A stretch of DNA of 64,000 nucleotides from a bacterium. Its GTDB lineage: Bacteria > Hydrothermota > Tepidihabitantia > Tepidihabitantales > Tepidihabitantaceae. Positions 5,859 to 41,203 of this stretch are shown piece after piece (position 1 is the first letter of the stretch; each line of letters starts with the position of its first letter). The notes beneath the pieces are model-generated. The model made no database searches, had not been told where the DNA came from, and saw only the letters and a list, made by a program, of their open reading frames with translations. The translations under genes were made by a program, and so were the position numbers. The DNA lies in assembly GCA_035505375.1 (NCBI GenBank), contig DATJQV010000075.1, positions 83,393-147,392 of the forward strand, read 5' to 3'.

Positions 5859-8800
5859 CTAGGCTGCGTCCTCTTTGTAGGTCAGGCCGAAAACGGTGTC
5901 GGCCAGCCACTTGCGGAAGTCGTCGTTGTCGCTGTACTGCTTGAACAGCTCGGTGTGGTCGGACAGAAGCTCAACCAGCACCCGCTTCAGGGCTTTGTCG
6001 TGCTCGATGCGGGCGTTCTGCTTATCCGAGTTCTTCATTGCATTCTGATACGCCTTATCCGCGCTGACTTTGGCCGGAATCTCCTGTGCTATGACGGCCC
6101 GAATCTTGTCGGCGTCCTTCCAGTCGATGTTGCCGAAGAGGTCGTTGAATGCCTTGAGGATGTTACTCAACTTGTCCATCTCCGGTTCAGGCTTGTGTCC
6201 GCCCTGTTCGACTGGAACCGGGCCGACTTCGCCATCTTGGTCAGGCAGTGCAATGGTCCGCGTCGACTGCATCTCCGCCCTGTAGCTGTCCATATCAACG
6301 GCATCGAGGATACCCTTGGCCAGGTCTTCTTCCTCGGGCGCCGGCAGCTTCGGTATCAGGAAGTTCAGGAATATCGACAGCTTCTCCCACGAAGCATTGG
6401 TATAGGGTAGCACGGTTGCCAGAAATGCGTAGGTGCGGACGAAGCTTTTAGCTCCGCCCTTGAAGCCAACCTGCCCGTCCTCATCCAGGTTCAGCTTGTA
6501 CACGGCGACGCAGGCATCGAGAATCGGGTCGAGCCGGTCGCGCTCAGCCCCGCCAAGGTACAGCTTCACCAAGTCTTCAACCTGGCTCCAATCATAGACC
6601 TGAGCTGCATCCAGCTTTGCCTTCAGATCGTGCAGCTTGTTGGGATCGGTTTCCTCGCTCAGAATCGTCGTCCGGTAGTAGGGCGCGAAGTCGCGCTGGA
6701 TTCCCTCGGTGGTGTTTGTGAAGTCGAGCACAAACGTGTCGTACTTGCCGGGCATCGCCCGGTTCAAACGCGAGAGGGTCTGAACCGACTTCACGCCCGA
6801 CAGAATCTTGTCCACGTACATCGTGTGCAGCAGCGGCTCGTCATAGCCGGTCTGGAACTTCTCGGCGCAGACCAGTAACCGGTACGGGTCTTCGCGGAAC
6901 CGCTCGGCAATCTGACTTCCGGGGGATCCGTTCATGGATGTCTCGCTCAACTTCGCACCCTTGAATTCGTGCTCTCCCGAGAATGCGACCAGAGCCTTGA
7001 ACGGCAGTTTCATCTCGCTGATGTAGCCGGCTATTGCCTGGTAGTACTCGATCGCCCGCACGATGCTGCCCGTGACAACCATCCCCCTTGCCTGCCCGCT
7101 TATCTTGTGCCGTGAGTATACCTGGTTCAGGAAGTGGTCGACGATGATCTCGGCCTTCTTCTCGATGGCATGCTCGTGGGTTTCGATGTAGCGCCTGAGC
7201 TTCTTTGCGGCCTTCCTCACGTCGTACTCGGGGTCGTCCGGCACGGTCTTCACCAAACGGTAGTAGTTGTTCACCGGCGTGTAGCCCTTGAGCACGTCGA
7301 GGATGAAGCCCTCCTGTATCGCCTGCTTCATTGTGTAGCTGTGGAACGGCCGGTGCTTGACCTCCTCGCCCTCGGCGTATGGCACGCCAAACATCTCAAG
7401 AGTCTTATTCTTGGGCGTGGCCGTGAAGGCGAAGTAGCTGGCATTGGAGAGCATCCGGCGCGATTCGATGATGCGGTTGATGGTATCTTCGTACGTCTCC
7501 TCTTCCGGTTCCTCGCCCTCGGGCGAGAGCGCGATGTTCATCTTGGCCGAGGTCCGACCGCCCTGGCTGGAGTGGGCTTCATCAATGATGATGGCGAACC
7601 GGCGGTTGCGATGCTCGCTGCCGATTTCCTCCAACACGAACGGAAACTTCTGCACCGTGGTGATGATTATCTTCTTGCCCGATTCGATGAACTGGCGCAA
7701 CTGCTGCGAACCTTCGGTCACAGCGCCTACGATCGCAGACACCTGCGCGAACTGCCTTATCGTGTCGCGTATCTGCTTGTCGAGCAGACGGCGGTCAGTG
7801 ACCACGATGGTGGAGTCGAAAGCCGGCTTCCCCTCCCGCTCCAGGCCGACAAGTTGGTGGGCCAGCCAGGCAATCGAGTTCGACTTGCCCGAGCCCGCCG
7901 AATGCTGAACCAAGTAGCGCTTGCCGACGCTGTCCGCCAGAGCGGCCGCCAGCAGCTTGCGCACCACATCCAACTGGTGGTATCGCGGGAAGATCTGCTT
8001 GCGCTTCTTCCGGCCAGTCCTTTCATCTTTCTCCTCGACTACCTGTGCGTAGTTCTCAATGATGTTGGTCAGGCCCTCGCGCGTCAGCGCCTCTTCCCAG
8101 AGATAGGCAGTCTTAAGCCCGTTCGGGTTGGGCGGGTTGCCGGCTCCGTCGTTCCAGCCCTTGTTGAACGGGAGGAACCACGAGGCCTCGCCCTTCAGGT
8201 GCGTACACATCATCACCTGCTGGTCGTCCACCGCGAAGTGCACCAGACACCGGCTGAACTCAAACAGCAATTCATGCGGGTTCCGGTCGCGCTGGTACTG
8301 CACGACGGCATCGTCCACGGTCTGTTTGGTCAGGCTGTTCTTCAGCTCGAATGTCGCTATCGGCAGGCCATTGATGAACAGACATAGGTCGAGCGCGCGC
8401 TGCGTCTCGTCGCGGCTGTAGCGCAACTGGCGCGTGACGCTGAAGACATTGGACTCAAACAGCCTCACTGCCTCTCTGTTGCCCAGTGACGGAGTGCCGT
8501 AGAACAGGTTCACCGAAGCAGGACCGTGCTGGATGCCCTTGCGCAAGACATCGATGACGCCGCGCCTGGCGACCTCCCCGCGCAGCCGGTCAAGGAACTT
8601 CAGCCGGTTCGGGCCATCCTCAGCCAGACCCAGCGTCTCAACCGCCTTGGGCTGGGTTGCGTTCAGGAACTCCAGCAAGCGAACAAGGTCAACCGCGTGC
8701 TCGCGGTCATAGTGCGCAGGGTCGCCCTGCACATACCCAGTCCCGCCGATGGTGCCGACCTCGGTAGCAACCAGTTCCCCGCCGGCGTTATCCATGCGCC

Positions 8801-8861
8801 GGCCAGTCATGGCCGCGACAATCAGGCTCTCGAGGCCCTTTTCGCTGGTATCGGTAGGCAT
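5859..8861 (-). CDS. hsdR: type I restriction enzyme R subunit (HsdR), 1000 aa
   Basis: SF2 helicase motifs: Walker A SAGSGKSN and DEAH box IIIDEAHSSQ. The N-terminal nuclease region and the length are typical of HsdR. Confidence 0.9.
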   Translation of the reverse strand: MPTDTSEKGLESLIVAAMTGRRMDNAGGELVATEVGTIGGTGYVQGDPAHYDREHAVDLVRLLEFLNATQPKAVETLGLAEDGPNRLKFLDRLRGEVARRGVIDVLRKGIQHGPASVNLFYGTPSLGNREAVRLFESNVFSVTRQLRYSRDETQRALDLCLFINGLPIATFELKNSLTKQTVDDAVVQYQRDRNPHELLFEFSRCLVHFAVDDQQVMMCTHLKGEASWFLPFNKGWNDGAGNPPNPNGLKTAYLWEEALTREGLTNIIENYAQVVEEKDERTGRKKRKQIFPRYHQLDVVRKLLAAALADSVGKRYLVQHSAGSGKSNSIAWLAHQLVGLEREGKPAFDSTIVVTDRRLLDKQIRDTIRQFAQVSAIVGAVTEGSQQLRQFIESGKKIIITTVQKFPFVLEEIGSEHRNRRFAIIIDEAHSSQGGRTSAKMNIALSPEGEEPEEETYEDTINRIIESRRMLSNASYFAFTATPKNKTLEMFGVPYAEGEEVKHRPFHSYTMKQAIQEGFILDVLKGYTPVNNYYRLVKTVPDDPEYDVRKAAKKLRRYIETHEHAIEKKAEIIVDHFLNQVYSRHKISGQARGMVVTGSIVRAIEYYQAIAGYISEMKLPFKALVAFSGEHEFKGAKLSETSMNGSPGSQIAERFREDPYRLLVCAEKFQTGYDEPLLHTMYVDKILSGVKSVQTLSRLNRAMPGKYDTFVLDFTNTTEGIQRDFAPYYRTTILSEETDPNKLHDLKAKLDAAQVYDWSQVEDLVKLYLGGAERDRLDPILDACVAVYKLNLDEDGQVGFKGGAKSFVRTYAFLATVLPYTNASWEKLSIFLNFLIPKLPAPEEEDLAKGILDAVDMDSYRAEMQSTRTIALPDQDGEVGPVPVEQGGHKPEPEMDKLSNILKAFNDLFGNIDWKDADKIRAVIAQEIPAKVSADKAYQNAMKNSDKQNARIEHDKALKRVLVELLSDHTELFKQYSDNDDFRKWLADTVFGLTYKEDAA

Positions 8862-9161
8862 TAGTACCTCACCATCAAGTGACCATCAAGTAGAGCTAGT
8901 TCAAACCAATGCGTTGACTCATAGACACTCATGGCCATAGACATGCTTCTACAGACTGCCGCCGTCAGGATGAGTATCAAGTTCTGCGTCTGGCTTCGAC
9001 TAGAGTCGCCATCCACTAATCCGGCCTCGCTCAGTCGGGATTGCGTTACCGAATTGCATCCGAATTGCATCCAGAGCACTCGCGCTCGTGGATTGGCTAT
9101 ATGCCGTAACATCCTAAAGCAAGATGACTTACCGAATCGCGGCTGGGCCGCCGTACATGGG

Positions 9162-10819
9162 TCATTGCCGTCCGGATTGCTGTTCGATTGCATCTGGGTC
9201 CGGACCAATGAACCACCGTCCGGATCTGGTCTTGCCCCGGCAATGAACGCGGTTCTCGGCCTTCAACTCGCGGAGCAATGTCTGCATTTGGGCGCGCGAC
9301 AGGCTCGGGTCATTCAGCGCGCCGAGCAACTCGCGGAGCGGGCTGCCCTGCCCCTTGAAGGCCTCCAGATGCTGTAGTACCAGCTCCTTCAACCGCGCCC
9401 GGTCCAGTCCCCGACGCCTTGTGTAGCCGGCCTTATCACCCATTGCCGCGTAGAGCTTCCTTGCCAACAGGTACTTCATGCCCCGGGCGCGTCCTGTAGT
9501 CTCAACCAACCCCATCTCCCTGAGTCCGGCCAGGCGCGGTGCCAGGTTTGCGGGAACCACCTCGCCGCGGCGCAGAAGGTCGAGCACCAACAGATCCTCC
9601 GTCTGGAACGAACGCACACGTTCAGCGCCTACACGTTCCAGAAACCGTAGGAATCCCTCGTCCTGCACTGCACCCTGAAGCGTAAGCATGACCTGGTGCT
9701 CGTCGGTGCCGTTGAAGTCGGGCAGAGGCTTACTCTCGCGGATGGCAGTCTCGTACATAACGTTGGCCCTTGCCCAGAACGTTCGACCAGGCCGCACTTC
9801 GCGAGCACCTCGGCAATGCGTCGGTTGCGTGGACTCTGCCTGTAGAGGATGTTGTCGCGGGTGATGCCGCTGGGAAACCCGCCCGGGCTGACTACTTCCA
9901 GTCGCCGTGGGTATTGTCGCACAAACACCGACTCGGCCATTCGGTAGTCGCGATGACTCACGGCGTTTAGCAGTGCCTCGCGTACCACGCGCTCGCTGAA
10001 CGTCGGAATGTCCCAGATGAACAGCCCGTCTTGGAAGTGCTGGCTGTCGTTACGCAGGTTGATGGTCTTCCACAACTCGTCATCGAACGAGAAGAACCCC
10101 TGTCTGTATTCCTTCCTGTCCTGCGCAGGCCCGGTCGCATCGCTGGAACGATACTCGAAGACAATCTCCGCTTGAGCAAGGTCCCGCCCGAGGGCCATGC
10201 GAGTACCCAGCAGGATCAACGCCGCGTAGGTCACGCGTCCGTCCACCAGAAGCTCCGCGTCCGACAGAAGCTGCCCAGTGGACATGCCAAGCAGGTCGGC
10301 GCGTCCCGACTTCCGGTTCCACCGCTCGCGCAGTCGCTCGATGGCAACCTGGTCGAGCGCGTCCAGCGTCGCCCCGGGGCATATCTCTGCCGAGAAATCC
10401 GGCCCGGTCTCATCGAAGATGCGCCGCAGCATGTCTTCCGTCATGGCGGTCAGGCTATCACCTGAGCGCATCCAGTAGACACCGTCGTACCGCAACGGTA
10501 CGCCGATCGGCCGGGACGGTACATCGAACACGACCACCCGTCCGTGTGGGTGCTGAACCTCGACGCCGTCAATCCGCAGGTGCAGTATCTGAGTCAGGTC
10601 GCACCTGCGGTGCTCCAAGTCGCGGAAAGCATCAGTACCGACCACGCGGCGCGGCTTGAGGTTCGTAACACCAAGGATGAGCTTGCCGCCACGCTCGTTG
10701 GCCAGGGCGCAGCAGTACTTCCGCAGTTTCTCGATGTTGAAGTCGTGCTCGGCCTTCTTGAACTCAAGATGCTCGTCTTCCTCCGTCAGAAGCAACTCGT
10801 TCAACTGCTCAGCGGTCAT
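9162..10819 (-). pseudogene. RecG-like/Schlafen AlbA_2 (divergent AAA) + HATPase-type putative transcriptional regulator, split by a frameshift near 9765-9778
   Basis: ORF 9629-10819 encodes the AlbA_2 N-domain and ATPase-like region and runs out of frame after ...CGLVERSGQG. ORF 9162-9797 (GTG start) continues the same protein family (ANVMYETAIRESKPLPDFNGTD...) in another frame. The junction lies in a GGG/CCC run. Confidence 0.65.
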
Positions 10820-10915
10820 CTACTTCATCTCCGCATACAGCCGCCCGTTCGCAGTTCTCCGGATTCACCAACGTCTCCGCATCCTCGTGGAGGATGTCCC
10901 CGCTAGTGAACTCCA

Positions 10916-12367
10916 TCACTCCTCGCCCTCCGCATCATGGCTTGCGAGAGCTTCCTCGTTCGCCTCCTCCAATTCCTCCGGCGCTTCCGCCTCCGGTTCC
11001 TCAACTTCCTCCGTCTCATCCGGCAGATTCGTGGCGGCTTCGCGCACGTCCAGTTTGCCTGTCACCACGTCCGCCACAAGCCGAGTCCGGTACTCGCGTA
11101 GAAGGAGCACCTCAGCCTCCACTCGGGCTATTGCGGCATCCAGCGCAGCGGTCTGTGCCGCTATGTGCTCAAGCAAGCTCTTCTGTTCCGCAATCCCCGG
11201 CAGCAGAATCGGAAACGCGCGCAAGGTTGTGCTGTTTGTAGAGGCGAGATTCGTGGTCTGCTTAGCTGTCAGTTGGAAGTAGGCACGCCCATGCATGGAC
11301 ACCATGAGGCCTTCAAGGAACTCGGGAATCATGATGTCCTGTCTGCAACGGACGGCGAAAATGTGATTCTGGTGCAGGCAGTTCGGAATCTCGTCATGCC
11401 ACACACAACCGCGGCCGAGCTCGTCGATGTCTCCTCCCTCGGTCATCAGAACGTCTCCAGCACGCAGCGTCGCGCCGGATGCCTCTTTCACAGGGACGCT
11501 GATGTGCTTGATATGTCCGAGGTCAAGGCGGCCGGCTTGAACGTTAGCCACGCGGAGGTAGGGTCGTGACTCAATGGTGACTCCTTCGTAGCGCTTCCCA
11601 AGTGTTAGTCCGGTCTGCACGGTCGCCGCGTCTTTGAGCCGAGCAATTCTCCAATGCTCAGGTATGCCTCCCAGCCAAGCGACCCCGGACGGTTTGTACT
11701 TTGGATACGGCTTCCCAGTGCGGACGTCAATCTGACCGGTCACGGCCTGGTGGATAATGGCTTGCTTCTGCTCGTTCAGCCGCGCAATCAGCCTCTGCTT
11801 CGCCCGGATGTACTTCCGAATCCGCCGGTCAACGTGGTCAAGGTAGCGCACGATGGCGGATTGCTCCGCCAGAGGCGGTTTGCACGATACGATCATCCTG
11901 AAGTGCTCGGGCCTGAGGCTCCACATATCTGACGTGATGCCGTAGGACCAACGTTCCGCCTCCTTGGCGAAAACCGGAGTTCGCATGAGGTAGTGGAAAT
12001 AGCGCGGACTCGATCCCTCGCGCGGGCGCTGCACGACGTATGCAGGGCTAACGATTCCACGTAGGTCGGACACTCCGACCGCACCTTGCCATGCCCGCAT
12101 CTTGTTGTAAGCGATGTCTCCGGGACGAACGAGCTTGTAGGCGGACTTGTCCAGATTCGAGCCGTCCTTCTTCGAGCTATCTGCCAGCAATGCTTGCTGA
12201 CGAATCACGCCCCTCGTGATAGTCACGGACAGCATCGGTTCGTCTGGATGGTCGCGCTCTTTGACTTCGGCGAAGAGGGCGCGGTTAGGCAACACATCCC
12301 AATGCTCCGGCACGTCTCCCAGCCACGGCACGCCGGAAGGCTTGTAGGATGGGTAGGGTGTTTTCAA
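10916..12367 (-). CDS. hsdS: type I restriction-modification specificity subunit (HsdS), two target-recognition domains
   Basis: Duplicated YPSYKPSGVPWLG / YPKYKPSGVAWLG motifs with conserved central and C-terminal coiled-coil spacers typical of HsdS. Confidence 0.85.
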   Translation of the reverse strand: MKTPYPSYKPSGVPWLGDVPEHWDVLPNRALFAEVKERDHPDEPMLSVTITRGVIRQQALLADSSKKDGSNLDKSAYKLVRPGDIAYNKMRAWQGAVGVSDLRGIVSPAYVVQRPREGSSPRYFHYLMRTPVFAKEAERWSYGITSDMWSLRPEHFRMIVSCKPPLAEQSAIVRYLDHVDRRIRKYIRAKQRLIARLNEQKQAIIHQAVTGQIDVRTGKPYPKYKPSGVAWLGGIPEHWRIARLKDAATVQTGLTLGKRYEGVTIESRPYLRVANVQAGRLDLGHIKHISVPVKEASGATLRAGDVLMTEGGDIDELGRGCVWHDEIPNCLHQNHIFAVRCRQDIMIPEFLEGLMVSMHGRAYFQLTAKQTTNLASTNSTTLRAFPILLPGIAEQKSLLEHIAAQTAALDAAIARVEAEVLLLREYRTRLVADVVTGKLDVREAATNLPDETEEVEEPEAEAPEELEEANEEALASHDAEGEE

Positions 12368-12373: not shown

Positions 12374-13312
12374 TTATTTCGCTATCGGAACGCCATACTG
12401 AAGAAGCAGGCTTTCAAGGTGCCGACCATCGATGAGCCTGACCATTTTCATCTCGGGGCGGTTGGCCTCCTTGATGGCCCCCGCGCTGAACTCCCCAGAC
12501 GTAACAACCATGCACTCGGCCGGGCCTGCGGCCCCTCTGATCTTCTGTATATCTGGAGCCTGCACTTTGGCCTTCCAGTGCTTCACCTGCACTTTGACGG
12601 CGACCGTGCCGCCCGAATCCAGCGGACGGTGTCCCTCGACATCTACTCCGCGGTCGTGCGTCGCTGGGGTCACGACGACGCGATCGTAGCCAACTGCCGA
12701 AAGGAGATCTCCCACCAGTTGTTCAAGTTGCGTTGGCGACAGGCTGCGCAATCCGGCCGGAGCCATTGGTGTGGCAGGAGCGCCTGCCTGTGAAGCTGGG
12801 CTGGGCGTGGACATGCCGACCAAACCCACTGCTCCCCCGGCAAGACGCACGAACCGGGGTTTCTCGCCGCGCGCGACGCGGTCTCGGGTGTCCTGATAGA
12901 CGCGCCCAAGAACCATGTTCTCAAACTTCCCGCTCCGCGAGGAGAACAGCTTCTGGCTGGTGATCTCTGCAGCCAACTCCTTCGCCGTCATAGGATGTCC
13001 AACGGACCGCAACACATGTTCTACGGCACCGAGTATCTTCATCGGCCCGCGTGGCACGGTCGTGACCGCCTCCCTGTCGGCAGGCTGCTCTGACGCCAGC
13101 CTGAACAAGCCGCCTCGTGAGCCGTGCCGAAAGCGCGAGGCGGAACCATTGCTCTTCGTGTCCGCGCATAGCCTCGACCCCACGACATGCCCGAAGTCCT
13201 TGGCGGTTGGCAGAAAGAGCTTCTGCGACACAATCCTCTTGGCGATCTCTCGGTAGTGCAGCTCGACTCGCGCTTGGGACAGCACTTCGTGGGCCGCGTC
13301 TAGAATCTCCAT
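12374..13312 (-). CDS. mrr: Mrr-like type IV restriction endonuclease with two N-terminal winged-helix (HARE-HTH / Mrr_N) domains and a C-terminal Mrr_cat PD-(D/E)xK domain
   Basis: Two repeats of a ~90-aa wHTH module. The C-terminal region has the D...(E/D)xK signature (DRGVDVEG...VKVQVKHW). Embedded between hsdS and hsdM, a known arrangement. Confidence 0.65.
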   Translation of the reverse strand: MEILDAAHEVLSQARVELHYREIAKRIVSQKLFLPTAKDFGHVVGSRLCADTKSNGSASRFRHGSRGGLFRLASEQPADREAVTTVPRGPMKILGAVEHVLRSVGHPMTAKELAAEITSQKLFSSRSGKFENMVLGRVYQDTRDRVARGEKPRFVRLAGGAVGLVGMSTPSPASQAGAPATPMAPAGLRSLSPTQLEQLVGDLLSAVGYDRVVVTPATHDRGVDVEGHRPLDSGGTVAVKVQVKHWKAKVQAPDIQKIRGAAGPAECMVVTSGEFSAGAIKEANRPEMKMVRLIDGRHLESLLLQYGVPIAK

Positions 13313-13429: not shown

Positions 13430-15556
13430 TCACTCCAACGCCTCCTTGAGCAATCCTTCGGTCTCCTTCTCCAGTGCCGCGATGTCGGCCTTGATCTCTT
13501 CAAGAGTCCGAAGCGGCTGGGGCTTGTAGAAGTAGCGGTTGAAGCTGATTTCGTAGCCAATCTTGGTCTTGGATTCGTCTATCCAGGCGTCCTTGGCATA
13601 AGGCAGGACCTGGCGTTGGATGAAGGCTTCGATGCCACCGTCTTCAAGCAAAGGCACTTGCTCGGTGTCGCGTAGCTCCGTATCCGGTTCGTACTCGACG
13701 GCATACTGCCTGCCGACAACCATGGCCTCGAACAGACCGCGCAGAGGATCCACCTTCGTCTTGAAGAGCGGGTACGCCTTCTTGACGACAGGCACCCCGT
13801 TCTCATCGCGCTCAGCCAGGTTGTTCTTGAGCAGGTTCTCTCGCTTCACGGGGAAGTAGAAATCTTCCTTCAGTGCTGCCTTGCGTGCTTCTGTCAGGAA
13901 GGCATTGAAGTCCATGTGCGGCCCTGAGCCGAGTGATTCGGCCAGCTTGTCGGCAAAGGCAGGCAGATCCTCGTCCTTGGCCTTGGCGCAGGCAAACTTG
14001 AGCCGCGCTCGGCTGGCGTGGTTGAACTCGACCTTGAGCCTCAGCGGACGCTCGACCGTGACCTTCCAGTAGCCGAAGGCCTCGTTCGGAAAGACCTTGG
14101 ACTGCTCGGTCTCTTTGAACTCAAGGAAGGTGTCGGCGATCCGCCTGATGTCAGCATCCGAGAGCCGGCAGTTCTTCTTGCCGAGGTTCTTTCGCAGAGG
14201 CTCGAACCACTGGGTCGCATCGATAAGCTGAACCTTGCCTTTGCGATGCTCGGGTTTGCGGTTGGAGAGGAGCCAGATGTAAGTGGCGATACCGGTGTTG
14301 TAGAAGATGTTGAGTGGGAGCGCGATTATCGCTTCCAGCCAGTCGTTCTCGATTATCCAACGCCGGATGTTACTCTCGCCCTGTCCCGCGTCGCCGGTGA
14401 AGAGCGACGAACCGTTATGGACCTCGGCGATGCGGCTGCCGAGCCTGGTGCCGACCTTCATCTTGCTGAGCATATTGGCAAGGAACATCATCTGGCCATC
14501 GCTGGAACGGGTCACGAGCGAATACTCCGGGTCGCCTGCGTGAGTGATGATGAATCGCGGGTCCTTGATGCTGTCCTTGCCGCCCATCTTCTCCATGTCG
14601 TTCTTCCAGCTCTTGCCGTAGGGCGGGTTGGAGAGCATGAAATCGAACTTCAGGCTGGCAAACCCGTCATGGGAAAGCGTGGACCCAAAGACGAAGTTGT
14701 CGGCCTCTTCACCCTCGCCCTTGAGCACCAGGTCTGCCTTGCTGATGGCATAGGTCTCGGGTTCGACTTCCTGACCGTAGAGGTGAATCGAGGGGTCCTT
14801 GCCGTGGTCCTTGGCCATATCGAGCAGACGTTGCTCGGACACGGTTAGCATCCCACCGGTCCCGCACGCGCCATCGTACACGAGGTACGCGCCGGACACG
14901 ACCTTGTCCGCCACCGGCTTAAGCACAAGGTCGGCCATGAGCGTTACAATGTCGCGGGGCGTGAAGTGCTCGCCTGCTTCTTCGTTGTTCTCTTCGTTGA
15001 ACCGGCGGATGAGTTCCTCGAAGATGGTGCCCATGCCGTGGTTGTCGAGTCCGGGCAGGCGCTCAGAGCCGTCACTGTTCAGCGCAGGCTTGGGGCTGAG
15101 GTTGATGGACGGGTCGAGGAACTTCTCAATCAGGCCGCCGAGGATGTCGGCTTCCACCAGAGTCGGCACCTGGTTGCGGAACTTGAACTTCTCGATTATC
15201 TCCTGGACGTTAGGCGAGAAGCCGTCGAGGTACGCCTCGAAGTCGGCCTTGAGTGTCTGCGCCCGGCCACGGGAGCGCAAGTCGCGAAGCATGAACGCAG
15301 AGGCGTTGTAGAACGACTGCCCGGCTGCCTGTCGCAGCGGCGCTTCCTGGCTGGAGATCTTCGACTTGTCGAGGCGATCCTTCATGTCGAGCACGGCCTT
15401 CTTGGTTGGCTCCAGCACGGCATCCAGCCGCCTGATGACCGTCATCGGCAGGATGACGTCGCGGTACTTGCCGCGTTTGTAATAGTCGCGGAGCACGTCA
15501 TCGGCGATGCCCCAGATGAAGTTGGCAATCCAGTCCAGTTGTGTCGGTTCCATCAC
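13430..15556 (-). CDS. hsdM: type I restriction-modification DNA methyltransferase subunit (HsdM, N6-adenine)
   Basis: HsdM N-terminal domain (MMEPTQLDWIANFIWGIADDVLRD...). SAM-binding region and catalytic NPPYG motif (LSNPPYGKSW). Confidence 0.9.
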   Translation of the reverse strand: MMEPTQLDWIANFIWGIADDVLRDYYKRGKYRDVILPMTVIRRLDAVLEPTKKAVLDMKDRLDKSKISSQEAPLRQAAGQSFYNASAFMLRDLRSRGRAQTLKADFEAYLDGFSPNVQEIIEKFKFRNQVPTLVEADILGGLIEKFLDPSINLSPKPALNSDGSERLPGLDNHGMGTIFEELIRRFNEENNEEAGEHFTPRDIVTLMADLVLKPVADKVVSGAYLVYDGACGTGGMLTVSEQRLLDMAKDHGKDPSIHLYGQEVEPETYAISKADLVLKGEGEEADNFVFGSTLSHDGFASLKFDFMLSNPPYGKSWKNDMEKMGGKDSIKDPRFIITHAGDPEYSLVTRSSDGQMMFLANMLSKMKVGTRLGSRIAEVHNGSSLFTGDAGQGESNIRRWIIENDWLEAIIALPLNIFYNTGIATYIWLLSNRKPEHRKGKVQLIDATQWFEPLRKNLGKKNCRLSDADIRRIADTFLEFKETEQSKVFPNEAFGYWKVTVERPLRLKVEFNHASRARLKFACAKAKDEDLPAFADKLAESLGSGPHMDFNAFLTEARKAALKEDFYFPVKRENLLKNNLAERDENGVPVVKKAYPLFKTKVDPLRGLFEAMVVGRQYAVEYEPDTELRDTEQVPLLEDGGIEAFIQRQVLPYAKDAWIDESKTKIGYEISFNRYFYKPQPLRTLEEIKADIAALEKETEGLLKEALE

Positions 15557-15715: not shown

Positions 15716-16168
15716 CTAGCGACGTACCACCGGGAGGACAAGCGGCGGAAGGCCCATGCGCACGACAGTGCTTTGTACGTACTCGCGGAAGTATGGCCAA
15801 GTGTTCAGGGGGAGGTTGTTCGTGCAGAAGATCTGGAAGTAGTCCTTGGTCATCGGCTTTGCGACTCGGTATACGACCTCGAATGTGCAGCTGATTCGCA
15901 GTAGAGGTATCTTGGGTTCATCCTTGTACGCCGCCATGAAAACGCAGGTCTGAATAACCTTGCATGTTGCCTCGCCCTCCATCTGGAATGAGACTTTGTC
16001 TTCGATCCCCAGGTCCATCTCACGTTTGAAGTCGACTTTGTCTACGAGAAGCTCTGCGGATAGGGCCCGAGCCGCGATGTTCAGCAGATCGAGCCCCCGA
16101 ATGAACTCGGCATACTCCCTGGGGCTTACTTTCGGGCGTGCGGGCCGCTTGACCGCGGTTGCACTCAT
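15716..16168 (-). CDS. hypothetical protein, translationally coupled downstream of hicB
   Basis: Its start ATG overlaps the hicB stop by 4 nt (ATGA), with an AGGAAGG RBS. 150 aa with no recognisable family. Confidence 0.45.
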   Translation of the reverse strand: MSATAVKRPARPKVSPREYAEFIRGLDLLNIAARALSAELLVDKVDFKREMDLGIEDKVSFQMEGEATCKVIQTCVFMAAYKDEPKIPLLRISCTFEVVYRVAKPMTKDYFQIFCTNNLPLNTWPYFREYVQSTVVRMGLPPLVLPVVRR

Positions 16169-16725
16169 ATTGCCGCCTTCCTGTGGAAACTTATGTTGCC
16201 GGGGTCAGGGAGTGCGAACTCGCTGCCCCCGCATGATACACCGGCCAAACCCCTGAGCTGCTTGCGGGCGTTCCATGGATCACGAAGCACTATCTCTTCG
16301 AGGTCATCTCTCAAACGGTCAGCGGTGGACAGAGTTCTGGACAGACGAACGTCAAGCGCGTGCGTCACTACGCCCTGAGCGAGTACGACAGCCACAAACT
16401 GGTTTAGACTCGTTCCTTGCTCCTCTGCCTGTCTCGCAAGCTGGCGATGCAGAGCGGCCGGCAGGCGAACGACGAACTTGCCCGAGAATTCCCTTGCTTC
16501 CTCGGGCAGTGGTATCTCGATGTTTGACTGGTAGGCTTCCTCCAGCCAGAGTTCTCGCGCTTCCTTGATGTTGGCCATTGCCTCCTCTAGTGTTTCGCCT
16601 TGAGTCATACAGCCGGGCAGGTCCGGCACTGACACGAAGTACCCGCCTTCCTCCTGCTCATGCACCTGCACGGGATACTTCAGGTTCACGTAGTAGGCCA
16701 AGTCCTTCTCATTCCTGCGGTTCAT
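16165..16725 (-). CDS. hicB: HicB-family antitoxin with C-terminal extension
   Basis: N-terminal HicB/UPF0150 domain (YPVQVHEQEEGGYFVSVPDLPGCMTQGETLEEAMANIKEA). This is followed by an RHH-like DNA-binding segment (GKFVVRLPAALHRQLARQAEEQGTSLNQFV). Confidence 0.7.
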   Translation of the reverse strand: MNRRNEKDLAYYVNLKYPVQVHEQEEGGYFVSVPDLPGCMTQGETLEEAMANIKEARELWLEEAYQSNIEIPLPEEAREFSGKFVVRLPAALHRQLARQAEEQGTSLNQFVAVVLAQGVVTHALDVRLSRTLSTADRLRDDLEEIVLRDPWNARKQLRGLAGVSCGGSEFALPDPGNISFHRKAAI

Positions 16726-17826: not shown

Positions 17827-18429
17827 TCAGCGCCTGCGTCGGCGCCGATCGCGAGCGACGAAGTCCGAGCCTGAGCCGGTGTGGCCGGGTTTGTCGTCGT
17901 CGGTGATGAATCCGATACGTTTCTTCCTTGGCGCAGGCGGCAGCATGAGCTGTTTGATAGTGGCAAAGACCACCTGGAAGTTCCGGTCGTGCGTGGCCAG
18001 CTTGCGTTCAAGTTCGGCGAGCTTGATGGCGAGCTGTCGCTGGTCGGCCAGCATGCGACGCATTCGTATGAACGCCCTCACCACAAAGACGCTGACATCG
18101 ACCGCCCGTTTGGATCGCAGGACGCTCGCGAGCATGACAGTTCCATGTTCCGTGAATGCGTAGGGGCGACTTGACGAGTGCCTGAGCGCCACCAACCGGT
18201 CGCATTTTGCGACCAGTTCATCCTTCTCATCGAGTGTCAACTCGAACATGAAACCTTCGGGGAATCGTTCCCGGTTGCGCCGGACTTGTTCCTTCAGTCG
18301 GCGGGTCGTGACGCCGTAGACTTCGGCCAGGTCGACGTCCAGCATGACACGTTCGCCACGTATCTCCAGAATGGCACTGTCTATTCGCTCGGCGGGGATG
18401 AGGTATCCGGAGTCTTTGGGCGCGGTCAC
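17827..18429 (-). CDS. ORF6N (KilA-N-like) DNA-binding domain protein
   Basis: The N-terminal ~110 aa matches the ORF6N/antirepressor-like fold (LEIRGERVMLDVDLAEVYGVTTRRLKEQVRRNRERFPEGFMFELT). Typical of phage/mobile-element cargo. Confidence 0.65.
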   Translation of the reverse strand: MTAPKDSGYLIPAERIDSAILEIRGERVMLDVDLAEVYGVTTRRLKEQVRRNRERFPEGFMFELTLDEKDELVAKCDRLVALRHSSSRPYAFTEHGTVMLASVLRSKRAVDVSVFVVRAFIRMRRMLADQRQLAIKLAELERKLATHDRNFQVVFATIKQLMLPPAPRKKRIGFITDDDKPGHTGSGSDFVARDRRRRRR

Positions 18430-19701: not shown

Positions 19702-20709
19702 ATGACATTTGAGCCGAAGTTCACGGTTTCGGCCCGACTGCTGACGCTGGTCGAGGAGGTTGCGGCGCTACGCCAGCAGGTGGTCTCTTCGGCCGTGCAG
19801 GTGGCGTGGATTCCCCGGCTGCAGCAGGAGGCACGGGTGCGCAATACGCACAGCTCGACCGCCATCGAGGGCAATCCGTTGACCCAGGCCCAGGTCCGGG
19901 CGCTGGCTGAGGGCCGCGAGGTCCCGGCGATCGCGGACCGGTCCCGGCAGGAGGTGCTGAACTACTTCGCCGGGCTGCGGTTGATCGAGACGCACGCGAA
20001 GAAGAAGACGGTCACGCGCCGAGACGTGCTGCGGTTGCACGCGATTGCGGCGCACGGCGTGATGGACCAGGGACAATCGGGCGAGTTCCGCCGGATCCAG
20101 GTCTGGGTCGGCGGGCACGTGCCGCCTCCGCCGGAGCGGGTGGAGGAACTCATGGCCGCGCTCCTGGATTGGTGGAACGGGCCGGCGCGTAAGCTGTCTT
20201 CGGTCATTTCCTCCGCGGTCCTTCACTATCGGTTCGAGGAGATCCATCCGTTCGGCGACGGCAACGGCCGGGTCGGACGGCTGCTGGCTTTGTGGGAACT
20301 CTACCGGCGGGGTTTCGACACCCACCATATCTTCGCGGTTGACGAGTACTACTGGCATGACCGTCCGCGCTACTATCGGCAGTTGGCGGACGTGCGCAAG
20401 CACGGCGGCAATCTGACCGGCTGGCTTGAGTACACGGCCGAAGGTCTGCTTAAGGCGCTCGGCAATGCGCGGGACCGGATTCAGGCGATCTCGGCTGAGT
20501 CCGGGAGCGAGCCGATTCTGCTCCGTCCGAGGCAGGAGCAGTTGCTGCGCATGTTGCGCGACGAGGGACAGCTGGCCCCGCGCCGGATATGGGAAGGGCT
20601 GGGCGTCTCCCGGCAGGGCGCGATGGACCTGCTGCGACCGCTGCTTGCGGCCGGGCTGGTGAAGCGCATCGGCACGAGGAAGTCGGGCAAGTACACGCTG
20701 GCGCAGTAG
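19702..20709 (+). CDS. fic: Fic-family protein (AMPylation/adenylyltransferase domain) with C-terminal winged-helix
   Basis: Canonical Fic motif HPFGDGNGRVGR. C-terminal HTH-like region. Confidence 0.85.
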   Translation: MTFEPKFTVSARLLTLVEEVAALRQQVVSSAVQVAWIPRLQQEARVRNTHSSTAIEGNPLTQAQVRALAEGREVPAIADRSRQEVLNYFAGLRLIETHAKKKTVTRRDVLRLHAIAAHGVMDQGQSGEFRRIQVWVGGHVPPPPERVEELMAALLDWWNGPARKLSSVISSAVLHYRFEEIHPFGDGNGRVGRLLALWELYRRGFDTHHIFAVDEYYWHDRPRYYRQLADVRKHGGNLTGWLEYTAEGLLKALGNARDRIQAISAESGSEPILLRPRQEQLLRMLRDEGQLAPRRIWEGLGVSRQGAMDLLRPLLAAGLVKRIGTRKSGKYTLAQ

Positions 20710-21222: not shown

Positions 21223-21670
21223 AACAGGGGTCCAGGATTCGAGGTTGGCCGCGGCGGCCCCTGTCGGACAGCGCTGCCCGGCAATCGGTGTAATCTGTGA
21301 AATCGGTGGATGTCCCTTCCTTGTCCGCCCGTCTCCTCGTCCCCCGTCCTTCGTCTGAGCTATCTGCGACATCTGCGTCATCTGCGGTTTACCCACTCTG
21401 TGCCCTTGTGTTGGACTCCCATGCCGGATTCCGGCGACTGTCTCCCCAGACCCGAGAGTGAAGGCACGAAAGAACGCATCAAACCCGAAGTCCGAAGCTC
21501 GAAGCCCGATTCAAGTGCGAAATCGGGCCTTTTGCACTTCGGGTTTCAATCGTCATTCTACCTTCGAGCTTCGAGCTTGGTACAAAAGTGTCTCCCCGGC
21601 CATCTATTTCGAATTCAGGGTGTCTGCGGCGGCTTGACTGAGGTGGAGAGGCCGGTAGGCTTTAAGGAGT

Positions 21671-23188
21671 ATGTTCGGAGCCCTGTGCGCGGTAGTGTTT
21701 GCCGTGGTGTTCTCCGCACCGCTGCCTGTCTCGGGCCAGGCGGAGAGCCTGCCCGCGCCGGTCCGGCACGGTTATTCGTTCGAGCAGCTCTCCAATAGCC
21801 GGTACTCGGTCCACGCCGGGTTCGACGATTCGCTGCCGGCTCAGGTGATGGCCAACGTCCTGTGGGCGATGAGCCGGGCGCCGCGCGCGGGCAGCGAGTA
21901 CCGTGAGTTCTACGTGGCCACGCCGGAGAATGTGTATCGGTACGACCCTTCGAATCTTCTCCTGACGCTGTACCGCGCCGGGGACCACCGCTACAATTCC
22001 GGCTCGGCGTTCGAGGTCGGTGTCGCCGCCGGCCGGCCGGAGGAGACCGGCATGGCGATTCAGGCCGGGCTGCTCGCCGGAACCGCGTTCCGGAGAATGA
22101 CGAATGACGAAGGTCGAACGTCGAATGGCGGACAATCAGCAATCAACGTGGTGAGCTGCCCGATGGAGTGGGCGGCAGACCACGCCGCGGCCGATTGGAA
22201 TCCCGCCCACCCGATTCGGATGGTGAACGTGTTCGGCAGCGCCCCGGCGGCACCGCTGGATACCGTCTGCGTGGCCCGGTCAACGGACTCGAGCCTGCCG
22301 CTGCCGCACGTGGTCGGGCCCGATACGTTCGAGGCAGTGGTCGCCGACCTGGGTCAGGATTCTTCGTTCAGCCCGGTTGAGCTTTCACAGGAGAACCTGT
22401 CGCAGCTCTGCTGGGCCGCCTACGGAGTGACCCCGCACGCCACCTACAATCGCCGGCAGGGGCTGACCGTGCCGAGCGCGATGGCCGACTATTATCTCAC
22501 GGACCGCATCTATGTGGTCGGGCAGGACGAGGTGGGCCGGTATCATAACCGGCTCGCCGACACCGAAGTGACGACGCGCGACCACCGGCTGGAGCCGGTG
22601 ACTATAGGCGACCGCCGGCCGCAGTTGCGGGCAGCCTCGACCCGGATTCCCGGAAGCGCGCCGACCTATTTCGTGGTCTGCGTGCCGGATACAACATCGG
22701 AATCGGCCTTGATGGAGGCGGGGTTTGCCGGGTTCCAGTTGCTCGCGCAGGCAAGGGCGCTCGGACTTGCCGGGTGTCTCGTGGTGCCGCTCAGCCGGGC
22801 CGAGCGGAGGGACATTGTCACGGCGCTCCAACTGCCCGACGGCCACGTTCCGGCGCTGGTCTTCGCGGTCGGCGAAGCCGGAGCCGGCGCAGCGCAGCGC
22901 GGTCCGGCGGCCGGGGTCGTCACCATCGTCCGGGCGCAGTCGGCGATGCGCCAAAGCAGCCTGCAGGTCGAGTACCGGCTGAGCCAGGCCGGGCAGGTAA
23001 GGGCCCAGGTCTACGACATGCTCGGTCGGCCGGTCAGGCTGCTCGTGAATGAGCAGCAGTCATCCGGCTATCACACGGTAGTCTGGGACGGGACCGGCGA
23101 AGACGGCGCGCGGCAGAAGCGCGGCACGTATCTGCTCGTCATCATCTCCGGCGGAACCGTCGCGCAGCACAAAGTCAACATCGGCTAG
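21671..23188 (+). CDS. secreted SagB-type dehydrogenase/nitroreductase-fold-like protein with C-terminal T9SS/FlgD-Ig-like sorting domain
   Basis: Signal peptide. A central region has weak SagB-like signatures (RRQGLTVPSAMADYYL...GRYHN). The C-terminal ~75 aa match the tail shared by the other T9SS-type proteins here (YRLSQAGQVRAQVYDMLGRPVRLL...GTYLLVI). Confidence 0.4.
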   Translation: MFGALCAVVFAVVFSAPLPVSGQAESLPAPVRHGYSFEQLSNSRYSVHAGFDDSLPAQVMANVLWAMSRAPRAGSEYREFYVATPENVYRYDPSNLLLTLYRAGDHRYNSGSAFEVGVAAGRPEETGMAIQAGLLAGTAFRRMTNDEGRTSNGGQSAINVVSCPMEWAADHAAADWNPAHPIRMVNVFGSAPAAPLDTVCVARSTDSSLPLPHVVGPDTFEAVVADLGQDSSFSPVELSQENLSQLCWAAYGVTPHATYNRRQGLTVPSAMADYYLTDRIYVVGQDEVGRYHNRLADTEVTTRDHRLEPVTIGDRRPQLRAASTRIPGSAPTYFVVCVPDTTSESALMEAGFAGFQLLAQARALGLAGCLVVPLSRAERRDIVTALQLPDGHVPALVFAVGEAGAGAAQRGPAAGVVTIVRAQSAMRQSSLQVEYRLSQAGQVRAQVYDMLGRPVRLLVNEQQSSGYHTVVWDGTGEDGARQKRGTYLLVIISGGTVAQHKVNIG

Positions 23189-25060: not shown

Positions 25061-26710
25061 TCAGCGGCCCGCTGACGTCGGTTGGCTTACGGCCGGCGCG
25101 CCAGGTTTGACACTGAGGACGTAGAATTCGGGCGGCGGAGTGGAGAAGATCAGCGACCAGAGGCCCTGGTTTTCCTGGAGCACGGGGCTGAGCAGCATGG
25201 GAGTGGTCTCGGTCCACCGGAAGTTGTCGGCGAGGACGTACTGGGACCGCTCGATGGCGGACTTGACCTTCGCGTGGTCGGGCGTGATGGGGTAGCAGAA
25301 GGAGCGCCGGCCGGAGAGGAGATAGACGAATTCGGGCTTGCGCGCCATCACGACCGCGTCCGGAGGCGTCTGTAACTTGATCCACTCAATGGCTTCGAAG
25401 TAGCGGCGCCAGTCTTCCGGATAGCCGGAGTACCGGTCGCCGCGCAGGTAGCCGAGGTTGTCCCTGACGGCTTTGTGCGCGAGCGAGGTCATCTGGACCG
25501 TGTTGGCGAAGACGAGCACGCCGACGACCGTGGCGCCGAGCCAGCGCCACCGGAGTCTGGCCCCGAACCATTCCACACCCTGGAAAAAGAAGATGACGAT
25601 CAGCGGCAGGAAAGGTAGCAGAAAACGTTCGGACGCCCAGGTGTTGGGCCAGCCGAGCAGCAGCGGTATGGCGCAGAGTGCGCAGGCCGTGAGCGGTCCA
25701 AGCTGTCCGGGCCCCCTCGCCGCCATCCGCCGGACCGCGCGCCCGAACCCGACCGCGGACACGAGCGATACGATGATGCCGCAGACGACCTCGTAGTTGC
25801 TCCCCTCGTAAGTCGGGCAGAGCAGGCGCGGCACGGCCCGGCTCGAGTAGTCTCGCAGGTTCAGCCAGATGCGCGACGCCCAGTCACCGAAACCGGCGCG
25901 GCCCAGTTCCAGAAAGTAGGGGTGCTTGGCCAGCAGCTGCTCAAGGTAGGGCTGGCCGCGCCCGGCCCGCGCGTTGAGGACCTGCCAGGGAACGACCGTG
26001 GCGGCGAACAGGAGCAGCAGGATGACGAGGTCGCGGTACTGGCGGCGTACCAGGAACAGAAGCAGCAGGCTGAGCACCACCGCCAGTCCCGCCGTCCGGA
26101 TGTAGCACGCTGCCACTGCCAGTCCTCCGGCCAGAATCCGCAGCCGGGCCGCGGTCGCTTTCGGCCGTACCTCGGCCAGCACCAGGCAGTACAGGGCCGC
26201 AAAAGTAGCGAGCATGAACGGAAGCTCGGAGAGTACCCAGTGGTTGTTCACGACGAACGCGGGCATCGAGGCGAAAACGGCCATGATCGGCCAGGCTTTC
26301 TCCTGGAAGGTGAGCCGGCAGAGGCGGTAGATGAAGAACATCGCCCCCACGCCGGTGAGGAGGACGAAGAGCTTCGCGAACAGCACGGTGGTCGGGGTGG
26401 CCCCGGTCGGGCTGTGCCTACCCCCGGTGAGGAGCGTGATGCCGGCCAGCATCAGCGGGAATCCGGGCGGGTACTGGGTGTGTACCGGCGCGTCCGGCAG
26501 GTAAAGGTCCCGGTAGCCCTTGCCCGCGGCCAGCGACTTGCCGAGCGTCAGGTAGATGGCGTTATCGCCGAAGGTCGCCGGCTTGGGGTCGAACAAGAGG
26601 AGCGAGAACACCACGTAGATTCCCAGCAGCAACGGCAGGAAAAGGCGATGGTGGCCGGCGACGGCGGTCTGAGTGCGCCGCCCGGTCCCGTCAGGTCGTT
26701 TGCTGCCCAA
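25061..26710 (-). CDS. glycosyltransferase family 39 (ArnT/PMT-like) polytopic membrane protein, paralog 2
   Basis: Same architecture as 23279-25042. Tandem duplicate. Confidence 0.55.
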   Translation of the reverse strand: MGSKRPDGTGRRTQTAVAGHHRLFLPLLLGIYVVFSLLLFDPKPATFGDNAIYLTLGKSLAAGKGYRDLYLPDAPVHTQYPPGFPLMLAGITLLTGGRHSPTGATPTTVLFAKLFVLLTGVGAMFFIYRLCRLTFQEKAWPIMAVFASMPAFVVNNHWVLSELPFMLATFAALYCLVLAEVRPKATAARLRILAGGLAVAACYIRTAGLAVVLSLLLLFLVRRQYRDLVILLLLFAATVVPWQVLNARAGRGQPYLEQLLAKHPYFLELGRAGFGDWASRIWLNLRDYSSRAVPRLLCPTYEGSNYEVVCGIIVSLVSAVGFGRAVRRMAARGPGQLGPLTACALCAIPLLLGWPNTWASERFLLPFLPLIVIFFFQGVEWFGARLRWRWLGATVVGVLVFANTVQMTSLAHKAVRDNLGYLRGDRYSGYPEDWRRYFEAIEWIKLQTPPDAVVMARKPEFVYLLSGRRSFCYPITPDHAKVKSAIERSQYVLADNFRWTETTPMLLSPVLQENQGLWSLIFSTPPPEFYVLSVKPGAPAVSQPTSAGR

Positions 26711-27233
26711 GACTCTGTCTTAGATAGAACTGAGCTCGGGCCGCGTAGTCGGTCGCGTTGCGGCGGATGCGTTCGGTCTCGTCGGGAGTAAGCGGCCGCT
26801 TGACCACGGCCGGCACCCCGGCCACGAGCGAGCCGTCCGGCACCTCGAAGTCCTCGCGAACAACGGCGCCGGCGGCGACGATGCAGTTCCGGCCGACCTT
26901 GGAACGGTTCAGCAGTATTGCGCCCATCCCGATAATGCAGTCGTCGCCGACGGTCGCGCCGTGGATGATGGCGCGATGGCCCACCACGACCCGCTTGCCG
27001 ATGACGGTGGGCGTGTTGTAGTCAACGTGGACCATCGAGAGGTCCTGCACGTTCGTCTCTTCGCCCACGGTTATCGGGGCCATGTCGCCGCGCAGGACGG
27101 TGTTGAACCAGACGCTTGCGCCGCGGCCGAGCGAAACCTGGCCGATAATCGTCGCGCTGGGAGCCACGAAGCAGGTCGGGTCGACCTGCGGAGTCCAGTC
27201 CTGAAGCTTGATGATCATCTGCCCGGAGGCCAT
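26691..27233 (-). CDS. gamma-class carbonic anhydrase / hexapeptide-repeat (YrdA/PaaY-like) protein
   Basis: Left-handed beta-helix hexapeptide repeats and conserved His ligands (VWFNTVLRGD..., VGHRAIIHG). Confidence 0.8.
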   Translation of the reverse strand: MASGQMIIKLQDWTPQVDPTCFVAPSATIIGQVSLGRGASVWFNTVLRGDMAPITVGEETNVQDLSMVHVDYNTPTVIGKRVVVGHRAIIHGATVGDDCIIGMGAILLNRSKVGRNCIVAAGAVVREDFEVPDGSLVAGVPAVVKRPLTPDETERIRRNATDYAARAQFYLRQSLGQQTT

Positions 27234-28384: not shown

Positions 28385-28657
28385 GGGATTCCTCCTGGTA
28401 AGCATGCCTGCCGGTCTATCATCACACTCTGATATTGCCAAATAACCGGAGGGATTCAAGGACATGCGCGCGCAGGAAAAGGCCGAAGCTTGAATACCGA
28501 GGCTCGATTGAAGCTAGAATGGAGGCAAATGACGAAGTCGGATCCCAGTCTTCGAGCTTCGGGTTTTGCCCTCACTCAATCGTCATTCGAACTTCGCACT
28601 TCGAGCTTTGCCCTGCCTTTGCCTTCCGGCTTCACCTGAGGTATTATCCGACTCCAC

Positions 28658-32684: not shown

Positions 32685-32689
32685 CTTGC

Positions 32690-32735
32690 ATTCGGCACTC
32701 TGGATTCTGGTCTCTGAATTCTGGATTATCCGGGC
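32690..32735. repeat. MITE-like repeat fragment in the 60-bp spacer between the two DUF3857 paralogs
   Basis: CTGGATTCTGGTCTCTGAATTCTGGATTATCC is the reverse complement of the CAGAATTCAGAGACCAGAATCCAG module. Confidence 0.5.
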
Positions 32736-32744
32736 TTGCATTGC

Positions 32745-41078: not shown

Positions 41079-41124
41079 CGGGCGTGTAGACAGCAGACAG
41101 TAGACAGGATACAGCACAACGGTC

Positions 41125-41153: not shown

Positions 41154-41203
41154 GACACCGGCCGCGCGAGGCGTGCAGAGCCCGAATCACCGACTGGTCT
41201 GGC

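Follow-up and report, generated by a model that had tools for sequence, protein, structure and literature searches.

A frameshifted Schlafen-GHKL ATPase gene beside a Macro-gene remnant in a Type I restriction-modification operon of a Hydrothermota bacterium

Introduction

A 64,000-nucleotide (nt) stretch of contig DATJQV010000075.1 from a bacterium of the Hydrothermota (positions 83,393 to 147,392 of the forward strand; hereafter the window) carries a Type I restriction-modification (R-M) operon in which a gene encoding an AlbA_2 (Schlafen-type) domain and an ATPase domain, located between hsdS and hsdR, is split across two reading frames. Was this gene broken in the organism or only in the assembly, and what would its intact form do inside a restriction operon? 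We find that the lesion is the recent loss of a single G, that it is present in independent assemblies, that most of an adjacent Macro-domain gene is also gone, and that relatives of the split gene are repeatedly embedded in restriction operons. We consider it likely that the locus is a Type I operon with accessory defence genes, whose Macro-Schlafen module is decaying in this lineage and, when intact, would act as a second-line effector.

Results

One missing base divides a Schlafen-GHKL-HTH gene

Two overlapping minus-strand open reading frames (ORFs) in different frames lie between hsdS and hsdR, at 10819..9629 (frame A, 396 amino acids (aa)) and 9797..9162 (frame B). The frame A ORF encodes an SLFN_AlbA_2 domain (aa 14-126) and positions 3-60 of the 89-position HATPase_c_4 profile, and the frame B ORF alone had no Pfam match. 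A preliminary description of this locus had placed a split near 9765-9778, in a GGG/CCC run, and had taken frame B for the expected continuation of frame A. When ...CGLVERSGQG of frame A is joined to ANVMYETAIRE... of frame B, a 552-aa protein results in which the HATPase_c_4 match grows to positions 3-89, as that proposal implied. As sequenced, no single frame encodes a complete GHKL ATPase domain (PF13749); one added base is needed.

Alignment to intact relatives located the lesion exactly. An uninterrupted copy occupies the same operon position in four contigs, L001, L087 and L088 from JGI and L086 from Logan. These relatives have GGGCAAGGGGCCAAC, the window has GGGCAAGGGCCAAC, and the missing G is the sole indel across 1,659 aligned nt (~92% DNA identity). 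The features of the split gene are as follows.

9162..10819, minus strand: Schlafen (AlbA_2)-GHKL ATPase-tandem winged-helix gene, 552 codons once repaired, with a 1-nt deletion (homologue alignments, Pfam, structural model)
10442..10780, minus strand: SLFN_AlbA_2 nuclease domain, aa 14-126, motif E14-x4-E19-x-K21 (Pfam, 1.1e-12)
9678..9931, minus strand: core of the GHKL ATPase, PF13749, covering aa 297-381 once repaired (profile match 3-89)
9767..9769, minus strand (CCC on the plus strand): frameshift site, GGG where intact relatives have GGGG (single gap in DNA alignments)
9629..9631, minus strand: premature stop in frame A, after 45 out-of-frame codons (ORF reading)
9165..9659, minus strand: C-terminal tandem winged helices, aa 388-552 after repair, no longer in the reading frame of the start codon (AlphaFold2 model, Foldseek)

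Of 8,000 candidates scored in a search with the repaired protein, 6,504 matched at E ≤ 1e-3. Nearly all of the best 120 are uninterrupted and roughly 531-567 aa long; one of them has 93% identity and a length of exactly 552 aa. Uninterrupted proteins of ~545 aa, thousands of them, are colinear with the repaired protein on both sides of the junction, which places the two halves in a single family. In twelve homologues aligned there, R-S-G-Q-G is invariant, with a hydrophobic residue after it and N usually next. A second copy or repeat that might explain contig breaks was sought in the 64-kb window and not found.

The SLFN_AlbA_2 (PF04326) match exceeds the gathering score, and the catalytic motif in the window reads E14-DEHL-E19-F-K21. 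Residues E14, E19 and K21 are invariant in 55 homologues, as are the GHKL residues E281, N285, S311, P312, G313, G349, Q350 and G351. The frameshift falls directly after the G349-Q-G351 box (G2 box, ATP-binding site). The truncated product keeps the nuclease domain but lacks the DNA-binding tail entirely, together with the final helix and strand of the ATPase fold; this 396-aa protein is most likely inactive.

The architecture of the intact protein is visible in an AlphaFold2 model of the relative P0001, which is 93% identical to the repaired protein (predicted local distance difference test score, pLDDT, of 84). The model contains a Schlafen-type N-domain, a helical linker, a GHKL core (~aa 276-382) and two winged helices; the C-terminal helix-turn-helix (HTH) region is thus recognized on the model of a relative, and the window encodes that region in frame B at 100%. 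Foldseek searches of the PDB with P0001 matched the uncharacterised protein DIP2311 over its full length (3LMM, E 1.6e-25), human SLFN11/14/5 and SLFN13 at the N-terminus, pyruvate-dehydrogenase kinase (PDK) and histidine-kinase ATP domains in the middle, and MarR-type and RPC39 winged helices at the tail. DIP2311, a structural genomics target from Corynebacterium diphtheriae, has ~20% identity and a sequence-profile match of 4e-19. The label "RecG-like" in the preliminary description has to be dropped: it goes back to the historical name of PF13749, a GHKL (Bergerat-fold) ATPase domain, and the protein has no helicase domain.

The gene is a member of the prokaryotic Schlafen class termed "Schlatpase-HTH" or pSlfn-HisKinase-HTH, here disrupted. 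Among prokaryotic Schlafen architectures, pSlfn-HisKinase (34.0%) and pSlfn-HisKinase-HTH (19.2%) are the most frequent according to Taboada et al. (Nat Microbiol 2026, PMC13056530). Kuzmenko et al. give the name "Schlatpase" to the Schlafen-PF13749 pair and count 60,692 such proteins, the majority being small and ending in an HTH (bioRxiv 10.64898/2026.05.29.728809). The copy described here shares with these proteins, and with cluster 7 of Weickert et al. (Nat Commun 2026, PMC13462974), the order PF04326, PF13749, C-terminal HTH, the Ex4ExK motif and a co-directional position within restriction operons, in a family reported to be widely spread by horizontal transfer. It differs in being frameshifted, and its close relatives differ in having an adjoining Macro gene, a pairing that did not turn up in the portions of the Schlafen papers available to us, where no search was aimed at "Macro". 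What is new is this damaged copy; the domain make-up, defence role and restriction linkage of the family were already published in 2025-2026. In current pipeline annotations the locus appears as a "hypothetical protein" next to an "RNA-binding domain-containing protein"; it should be described as one disrupted Schlafen-GHKL-HTH gene beside a Macro remnant.

The frameshift in independent assemblies

We judged the reality of the shift indirectly, from assembled contigs and gene comparison. If the missing G were a sequencing or consensus error, the gene would be intact and the finding would reduce to operon architecture. The loss of one base from a homopolymer is what such an error would look like. 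The ratio of nonsynonymous to synonymous substitution rates (dN/dS) against the L001 gene, moreover, is the same on each side of the shift (0.106 on the 5' side, 0.105 on the 3' side; dS 0.28), and frame B (603 nt) contains no further stops or indels. The equal ratios and the clean frame show only that the lesion would be either very recent or artefactual.

The assemblies argue against an error. Records of the truncated 396-aa protein exist in NCBI (HTW92415.1, from a 212,375-bp contig of a third-party metagenome-assembled genome), JGI, ENA and Logan. Contigs of ERZ27256505 (ENA, MEGAHIT k141, 184,714 bp) and Logan SRR8879134 are 100% identical to the window across the shift, so that three differently built assemblies (the 212-kb third-party, the 185-kb MEGAHIT k141 and the Logan assembly) agree completely, even though they could stem from the same reads. 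A G run of 3 or 4 nt is not error-prone in short-read data. The window contains 281 G/C runs of at least 4 nt, the other 280 of which break no gene, and no other gene is split in the 64 kb. Two places considered as a possible second frameshifted gene, and hence as a sign of an error-prone assembly (53034-54739 and 26691-28513), were rejected; both are intact separate genes. We found no allele that is intact yet identical to the window, the closest intact protein being 96.7% identical, and a scan of JGI metagenomes with a pattern accepting either GGG or GGGG returned only the intact relative's contig and nothing on the alleles of the window lineage.

Contigs from other samples approach the site without crossing it. 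Those of ERZ27256510 (ENA) and JGI 3300032893 (L083, L084) are 99.98-100% identical to the window, and both stop at exactly 9623, within the 3' portion of the Schlafen gene and ~145 nt from the shift. These contig ends are most readily explained by a co-occurring variant of the gene's 5' part; a simple G3/G4 bubble would not end contigs there.

A second lesion in the adjacent Macro gene

In the closest relatives an intact Macro gene adjoins the Schlafen gene directly upstream. At this position the window contains the following feature.

10809..10916, minus strand: Macro-domain gene remnant, now a 35-aa ORF, of which only codons 1-22 (10916..10851) are homologous

Residues 1-22 of the L001 Macro protein match these codons with 77% identity (tblastn, E 2e-7), and the start ATG of the remnant overlaps the hsdS stop (TGATG). 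The deletion junction lies at 10849/10850, where the DNA alignment jumps from 246 to 733 in L001 and from 6704 to 7188 in L086. The loss amounts to ~485 bp, and alignment resumes just 5' of the Schlafen start.

The Macro deletion is a lesion independent of the frameshift, in the same module, and it tips the balance towards a genuine pseudogene because a loss of ~485 bp, unlike a missing G, cannot be a homopolymer miscall. The preliminary description had left the choice between an indel error and a pseudogene undecided; the indel stands, but the 22-codon Macro remnant that weighs for a pseudogene had been missed. Taken together, a sequencing or consensus error appears unlikely, and the shift is very likely a real and recent inactivation. 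In the window the Macro-Schlafen module is most likely dead, with hsdMSR and the HARE-HTH/Mrr nuclease gene intact.

A functional split is improbable

The split could also be functional, through programmed -1 frameshifting, phase variation or the production of two separate polypeptides (Schlafen with a partial GHKL domain, and the winged helices). Frame B is fully open, has possible internal starts at GTG 9797 and ATG 9689, and is assigned a 141-aa or 175-aa downstream product by gene callers. Yet the break lies inside the GHKL fold rather than at a domain boundary, close and distant relatives are all uninterrupted, and slipped-strand phase variation would need a run far longer than G3. Around TCT GGG CAA GGG CCA there is no X XXY YYZ heptamer, and the downstream 83 nt fold less stably than shuffled sequences (z = +1.7). 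With no heptamer, no stimulatory structure and all relatives in frame, we rejected a programmed -1 frameshift, which the preliminary description had already ranked as less likely, and regard a functional split of any kind as highly improbable.

A complete Type I operon with an Mrr-family nuclease gene

Five co-directional minus-strand genes lie between 15556 and 5859, namely hsdM, a HARE-HTH/Mrr gene, hsdS, the split AlbA_2/HATPase_c_4 gene and hsdR, with intergenic gaps of 117, 6, 96 and 300 nt in operon order. ORFs, Pfam and PADLOC bear out this arrangement, which the preliminary description had read from the DNA. The four intact genes are as follows.

13430..15556, minus strand: hsdM, Type I methyltransferase subunit, 708 aa, intact (Pfam N6_Mtase 5.2e-54, HsdM_N 2.4e-22)
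12374..13312, minus strand: accessory nuclease gene, 312 aa, two HARE-HTH domains and an Mrr_cat PD-(D/E)xK domain (Pfam Mrr_cat 7.9e-21)
10916..12367, minus strand: hsdS, Type I specificity subunit, 483 aa, intact (PADLOC Specificity_I 1.1e-99; Pfam weak)
5859..8861, minus strand: hsdR, Type I restriction/translocase subunit, 1000 aa, intact (Pfam HSDR_N, SWI2_SNF2, ResIII, T1R_D3-like)

HsdM covers the entire PADLOC MTase_I profile (8.8e-253), aa 5-444 of HsdS align to positions 7-440 of the 448 in Specificity_I, and aa 1-1000 of HsdR align full-length with the 996-aa HsdR of L001 and L087. With co-directional genes, full-length products and HsdM and HsdS profiles covered essentially end to end, hsdM, hsdS and hsdR form a complete Type I R-M operon with accessory defence genes. 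HsdS ends in a strongly acidic tail of ~40 aa (10916-11040, minus strand), …EEVEEPEAEAPEELEEANEEALASHDAEGEE, which lies outside the region spanned by specificity-subunit profiles. A scan of the operon for promoters and terminators found nothing exceeding shuffled expectation.

In the 312-aa accessory protein, aa 188-303 match positions 1-115 of the 115-position Mrr_cat profile, which identifies an Mrr-family nuclease domain, and a GVD...QVK motif (D...QxK) is legible in the translation. The protein is also matched by PADLOC PDC-S02 and mREase_IV; no NCBIfam model matched either this protein or the Schlafen protein. The sole other relative with HARE-HTH and Mrr_cat domains in a word-based search, P0133 (47% identity), is also encoded directly 5' of hsdS. 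In the immigration control region of E. coli K-12, the Type IV enzyme Mrr is encoded beside the Type I hsd genes. Both loci link an Mrr-family PD-(D/E)xK nuclease to hsd genes; here, however, the gene is inside the operon, between hsdM and hsdS, and where Mrr has an N-terminal winged helix its product has two HARE-HTH domains. Fusions of HARE-HTH domains to nucleases are a further known parallel.

At the DNA level, identity to the relatives is 90-92% for the Schlafen gene but only ~71% for the adjoining hsdR, whose protein identity is 67% (5859-10845 against L001 and L087). Because of this difference, the Schlafen gene and hsdR must have different histories, and the locus is a mosaic; the two genes appear to have been exchanged separately, which fits the exchange of modules between systems reported by Kuzmenko et al. 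The 300-nt spacer between the Schlafen gene and hsdR, considered as a possible small gene, has weak, frame-switching similarity to an 89-aa ORF of L086, which probably reflects non-coding conservation.

Relatives recur in several kinds of restriction operon

The closest relatives preserve the module. The order in L086 is hsdM, four small accessory genes including one with DUF4145, hsdS, a gene for a 254-aa protein, Macro, Schlafen (552 aa), the 89-aa ORF and hsdR, and L001, L087 and L088 have Macro, Schlafen and hsdR in succession, with Macro cut by the contig end in L087.

A scan with one genome per species found 523 encoded relatives. We counted neighbours for the 80 best of these (55-63% identical) by clustering the neighbouring proteins and annotating cluster representatives. 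The 80 loci span Nitrospirota, Chloroflexota, several Desulfobacterota lineages, Planctomycetota, Elusimicrobiota, Bacillota, Bacteroidota and Actinomycetota, as well as a Chlamydiae bin and a Methanosarcinales bin. The neighbour counts are as follows.

SNF2 helicase with NOV_C, usually directly upstream: 27 of 80 loci
DUF1156 methyltransferase: 17 of 80 loci
HEPN_Swt1-DUF499: 14 of 80 loci
hsdR, hsdS and hsdM: 11, 9 and 8 of 80 loci, respectively
Type III mod and res: 9 and 4 of 80 loci, respectively
DUF4391: 5 of 80 loci
Fic: 5 of 80 loci

A co-directional restriction-type system is present in 24 of the 41 loci that have at least 4 kb on each flank. Within Type I operons the gene sits between hsdS and hsdR or between hsdM and hsdS. 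The preliminary description had called the operon "interrupted" by the gene; the position is confirmed, but it is no oddity, being a recurrent one for the Schlafen family. Its suggestion of coupled restriction functions is supported by the counts in these 80 genomes and by the 2026 literature, in which the idea is already published. In Poribacteria, Type I operons contain a stand-alone Schlatpase gene and another fused to HsdS (10.64898/2026.05.29.728809), and Weickert et al. describe Schlafens with ATPase and DNA-binding domains as tightly tied to BREX, R-M and type I CRISPR systems (PMC13462974).

In a recurrent array (L015, L021, L024, L066, L068, L072, L073 and others), SNF2+NOV_C, Schlafen-GHKL-HTH, DUF1156 methyltransferase and HEPN_Swt1-DUF499 genes follow in this order. 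The gaps are short and fixed, and the helicase ORF ends ~60 nt ahead of the Schlafen match.

Two relatives with 70-75% identity have a different upstream gene: a protein of ~155-160 aa abuts the Schlafen start in L095 (4407-4889) and L096 (4022-4489). The two proteins are 34% identical to each other, have no Pfam match and show, by eye, a GIY-YIG-like "LYVV…YVGRT" motif; in L096 this gene and the Schlafen gene are part of a Type III-like operon. Neither the Macro protein nor these ~155-160-aa proteins are general partners of the Schlafen family, whose immediate upstream neighbour varies.

Other features of the window

Directly upstream of hsdM lie a gene for a HicB-like antitoxin (16165-16725, minus strand; HicB_lk_antitox 1.7e-16) and, overlapping it, one for a 150-aa SecB-like protein (15716-16168, minus strand; PADLOC PD-T4-9_C 6e-7). 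The pair may be a toxin-antitoxin-chaperone or PD-T4-9-type module. The surroundings of the Schlafen homologue in L095 likewise include a HicB-like gene, with a 147-aa gene after it. Genes for an ORF6N-domain protein (17827-18429, minus strand) and a Fic/DOC protein (19702-20709, plus strand) extend the defence-island character of the region, from ~5.8 to 20.7 kb.

Farther away, five tandem genes (38232-51922, plus strand) encode proteins of 760-948 aa, each ending in an FlgD_ig-type C-terminal domain, and two further genes end in the same way (56297-58963, minus strand; 21659-23188, plus strand). All seven are otherwise without Pfam match and have the look of a secreted or surface protein family. 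At 30684-34697 (minus strand) lie tandem genes for two paralogues that combine DUF3857 with a transglutaminase-like core.

Discussion

What would the intact gene do in this operon? We envisage an ancestral module between hsdS and hsdR in which a Macro gene, coupled translationally to hsdS, would have preceded the Schlafen-GHKL-ATPase-winged-helix gene. In this lineage the module is decaying: ~485 bp of Macro are deleted, and the Schlafen GGGG run has lost one G. By analogy with relatives, the intact protein may be a latent tRNA-cleaving Schlafen nuclease that its GHKL domain would drive into the active form by ATP-dependent oligomerisation, and the genomic context suggests a trigger from the winged helices or from contacts with the restriction complex. 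The protein would then be an abortive-infection effector acting as a second line when restriction is engaged or blocked, by analogy with PrrC in EcoprrI.

These activities are modelled on other Schlafen classes. The Ex4(E/D)xK motif is required for tRNA cleavage and defence in another pSlfn class (PMC13056530), and ATP-driven tetramerisation together with tRNA cleavage was reported for the Argonaute fusion RzAgo (10.64898/2026.05.29.728809). RzAgo, a SLFN-pAgo, has the Schlafen-PF13749 module in common with the protein described here, as weak PADLOC matches to pAgo-associated models reflect; it differs in having an Argonaute core, in place of which the sensor here would be the winged helices and, presumably, the restriction system.

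The comparison with PrrC concerns operon position and presumed logic, not membership. The prrC gene is positioned between hsdS and hsdR in the EcoprrI operon. Its product is an NTPase-regulated anticodon nuclease, encoded within the EcoprrI hsd region (Type Ic) and silenced by that enzyme (PMC1484252, citing Linder et al. 1990). In both cases, then, a gene for an NTPase-regulated nuclease, which for the locus described here is a putative tRNA nuclease, lies within an hsd operon, and a latent RNase that backs the Type I enzyme is our working model. The folds are unrelated, an ABC-type NTPase with its own nuclease domain in PrrC as opposed to Schlafen, GHKL and winged helices here; neither the ABC-type NTPase nor the nuclease C-domain of PrrC/RloC was matched in Pfam, NCBIfam or PADLOC.

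Tandem winged helices at the C-terminus could also belong to a DNA-binding regulator of the restriction operon, and some homologues are named "transcriptional regulator" or "putative DNA-binding domain-containing protein" in databases; many, too, are not beside defence genes. Against a regulator stands the E-x4-E-x-K motif, which is invariant in 55 homologues from many phyla, and the three unrelated kinds of restriction operon in which the gene occurs are not expected to share operators. Characterised prokaryotic Schlafens are, as reported, tRNases whose defence activity depends on the motif (PMC13056530, PMC13462974, 10.64898/2026.05.29.728809). We therefore consider a regulator in place of a nuclease effector improbable.

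A further reading gives the Macro protein a controlling part. Macro proteins are ADP-ribose binders or hydrolases. The Macro and Schlafen genes could form a two-gene unit, coupled translationally to hsdS, in which the Macro protein would gate the Schlafen tRNase much as an antitoxin restrains a toxin, or DarG restrains DarT, and the loss of most of the Macro gene would have made the nuclease harmful and so selected for its immediate inactivation by the 1-nt deletion. If this were true, the locus would preserve the trace of a tRNase gated by ADP-ribose that backed up Type I restriction; we think it a doubtful proposition, with little chance of being correct.

Several points weigh against the second-line effector and decaying-module reading that we prefer. 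The tRNase activity and the trigger of the R-M-linked clade are extrapolated from other Schlafen classes, tRNA cleavage and ATP-dependent oligomerisation having been demonstrated only in RorSlfn5, CbCash and RzAgo. The Schlafen-GHKL-HTH family is not obligately R-M-linked: 17 of the 41 well-flanked loci show no restriction system, and many of these 17 are Nitrospira loci surrounded by housekeeping genes. The Macro pairing was seen only in the closest relatives. A consensus error keeps a small probability, since one sequencing run may underlie all three assemblies with the shift; equal dN/dS and the lack of secondary lesions are also expected from sequencing error.

The clade is highly conserved, with about 57-60% identity over more than twelve bacterial phyla and one or more archaeal bins, and it is plugged into three ATP-dependent restriction machineries, the Type I, Type III and SNF2/DUF1156/DUF499 systems. 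For Schlafens with ATPase and DNA-binding domains, Weickert et al. describe the activation mechanism as unknown (PMC13462974). The conservation of the clade across these three machineries therefore makes it a good candidate for working out the trigger of R-M-linked Schlafens.

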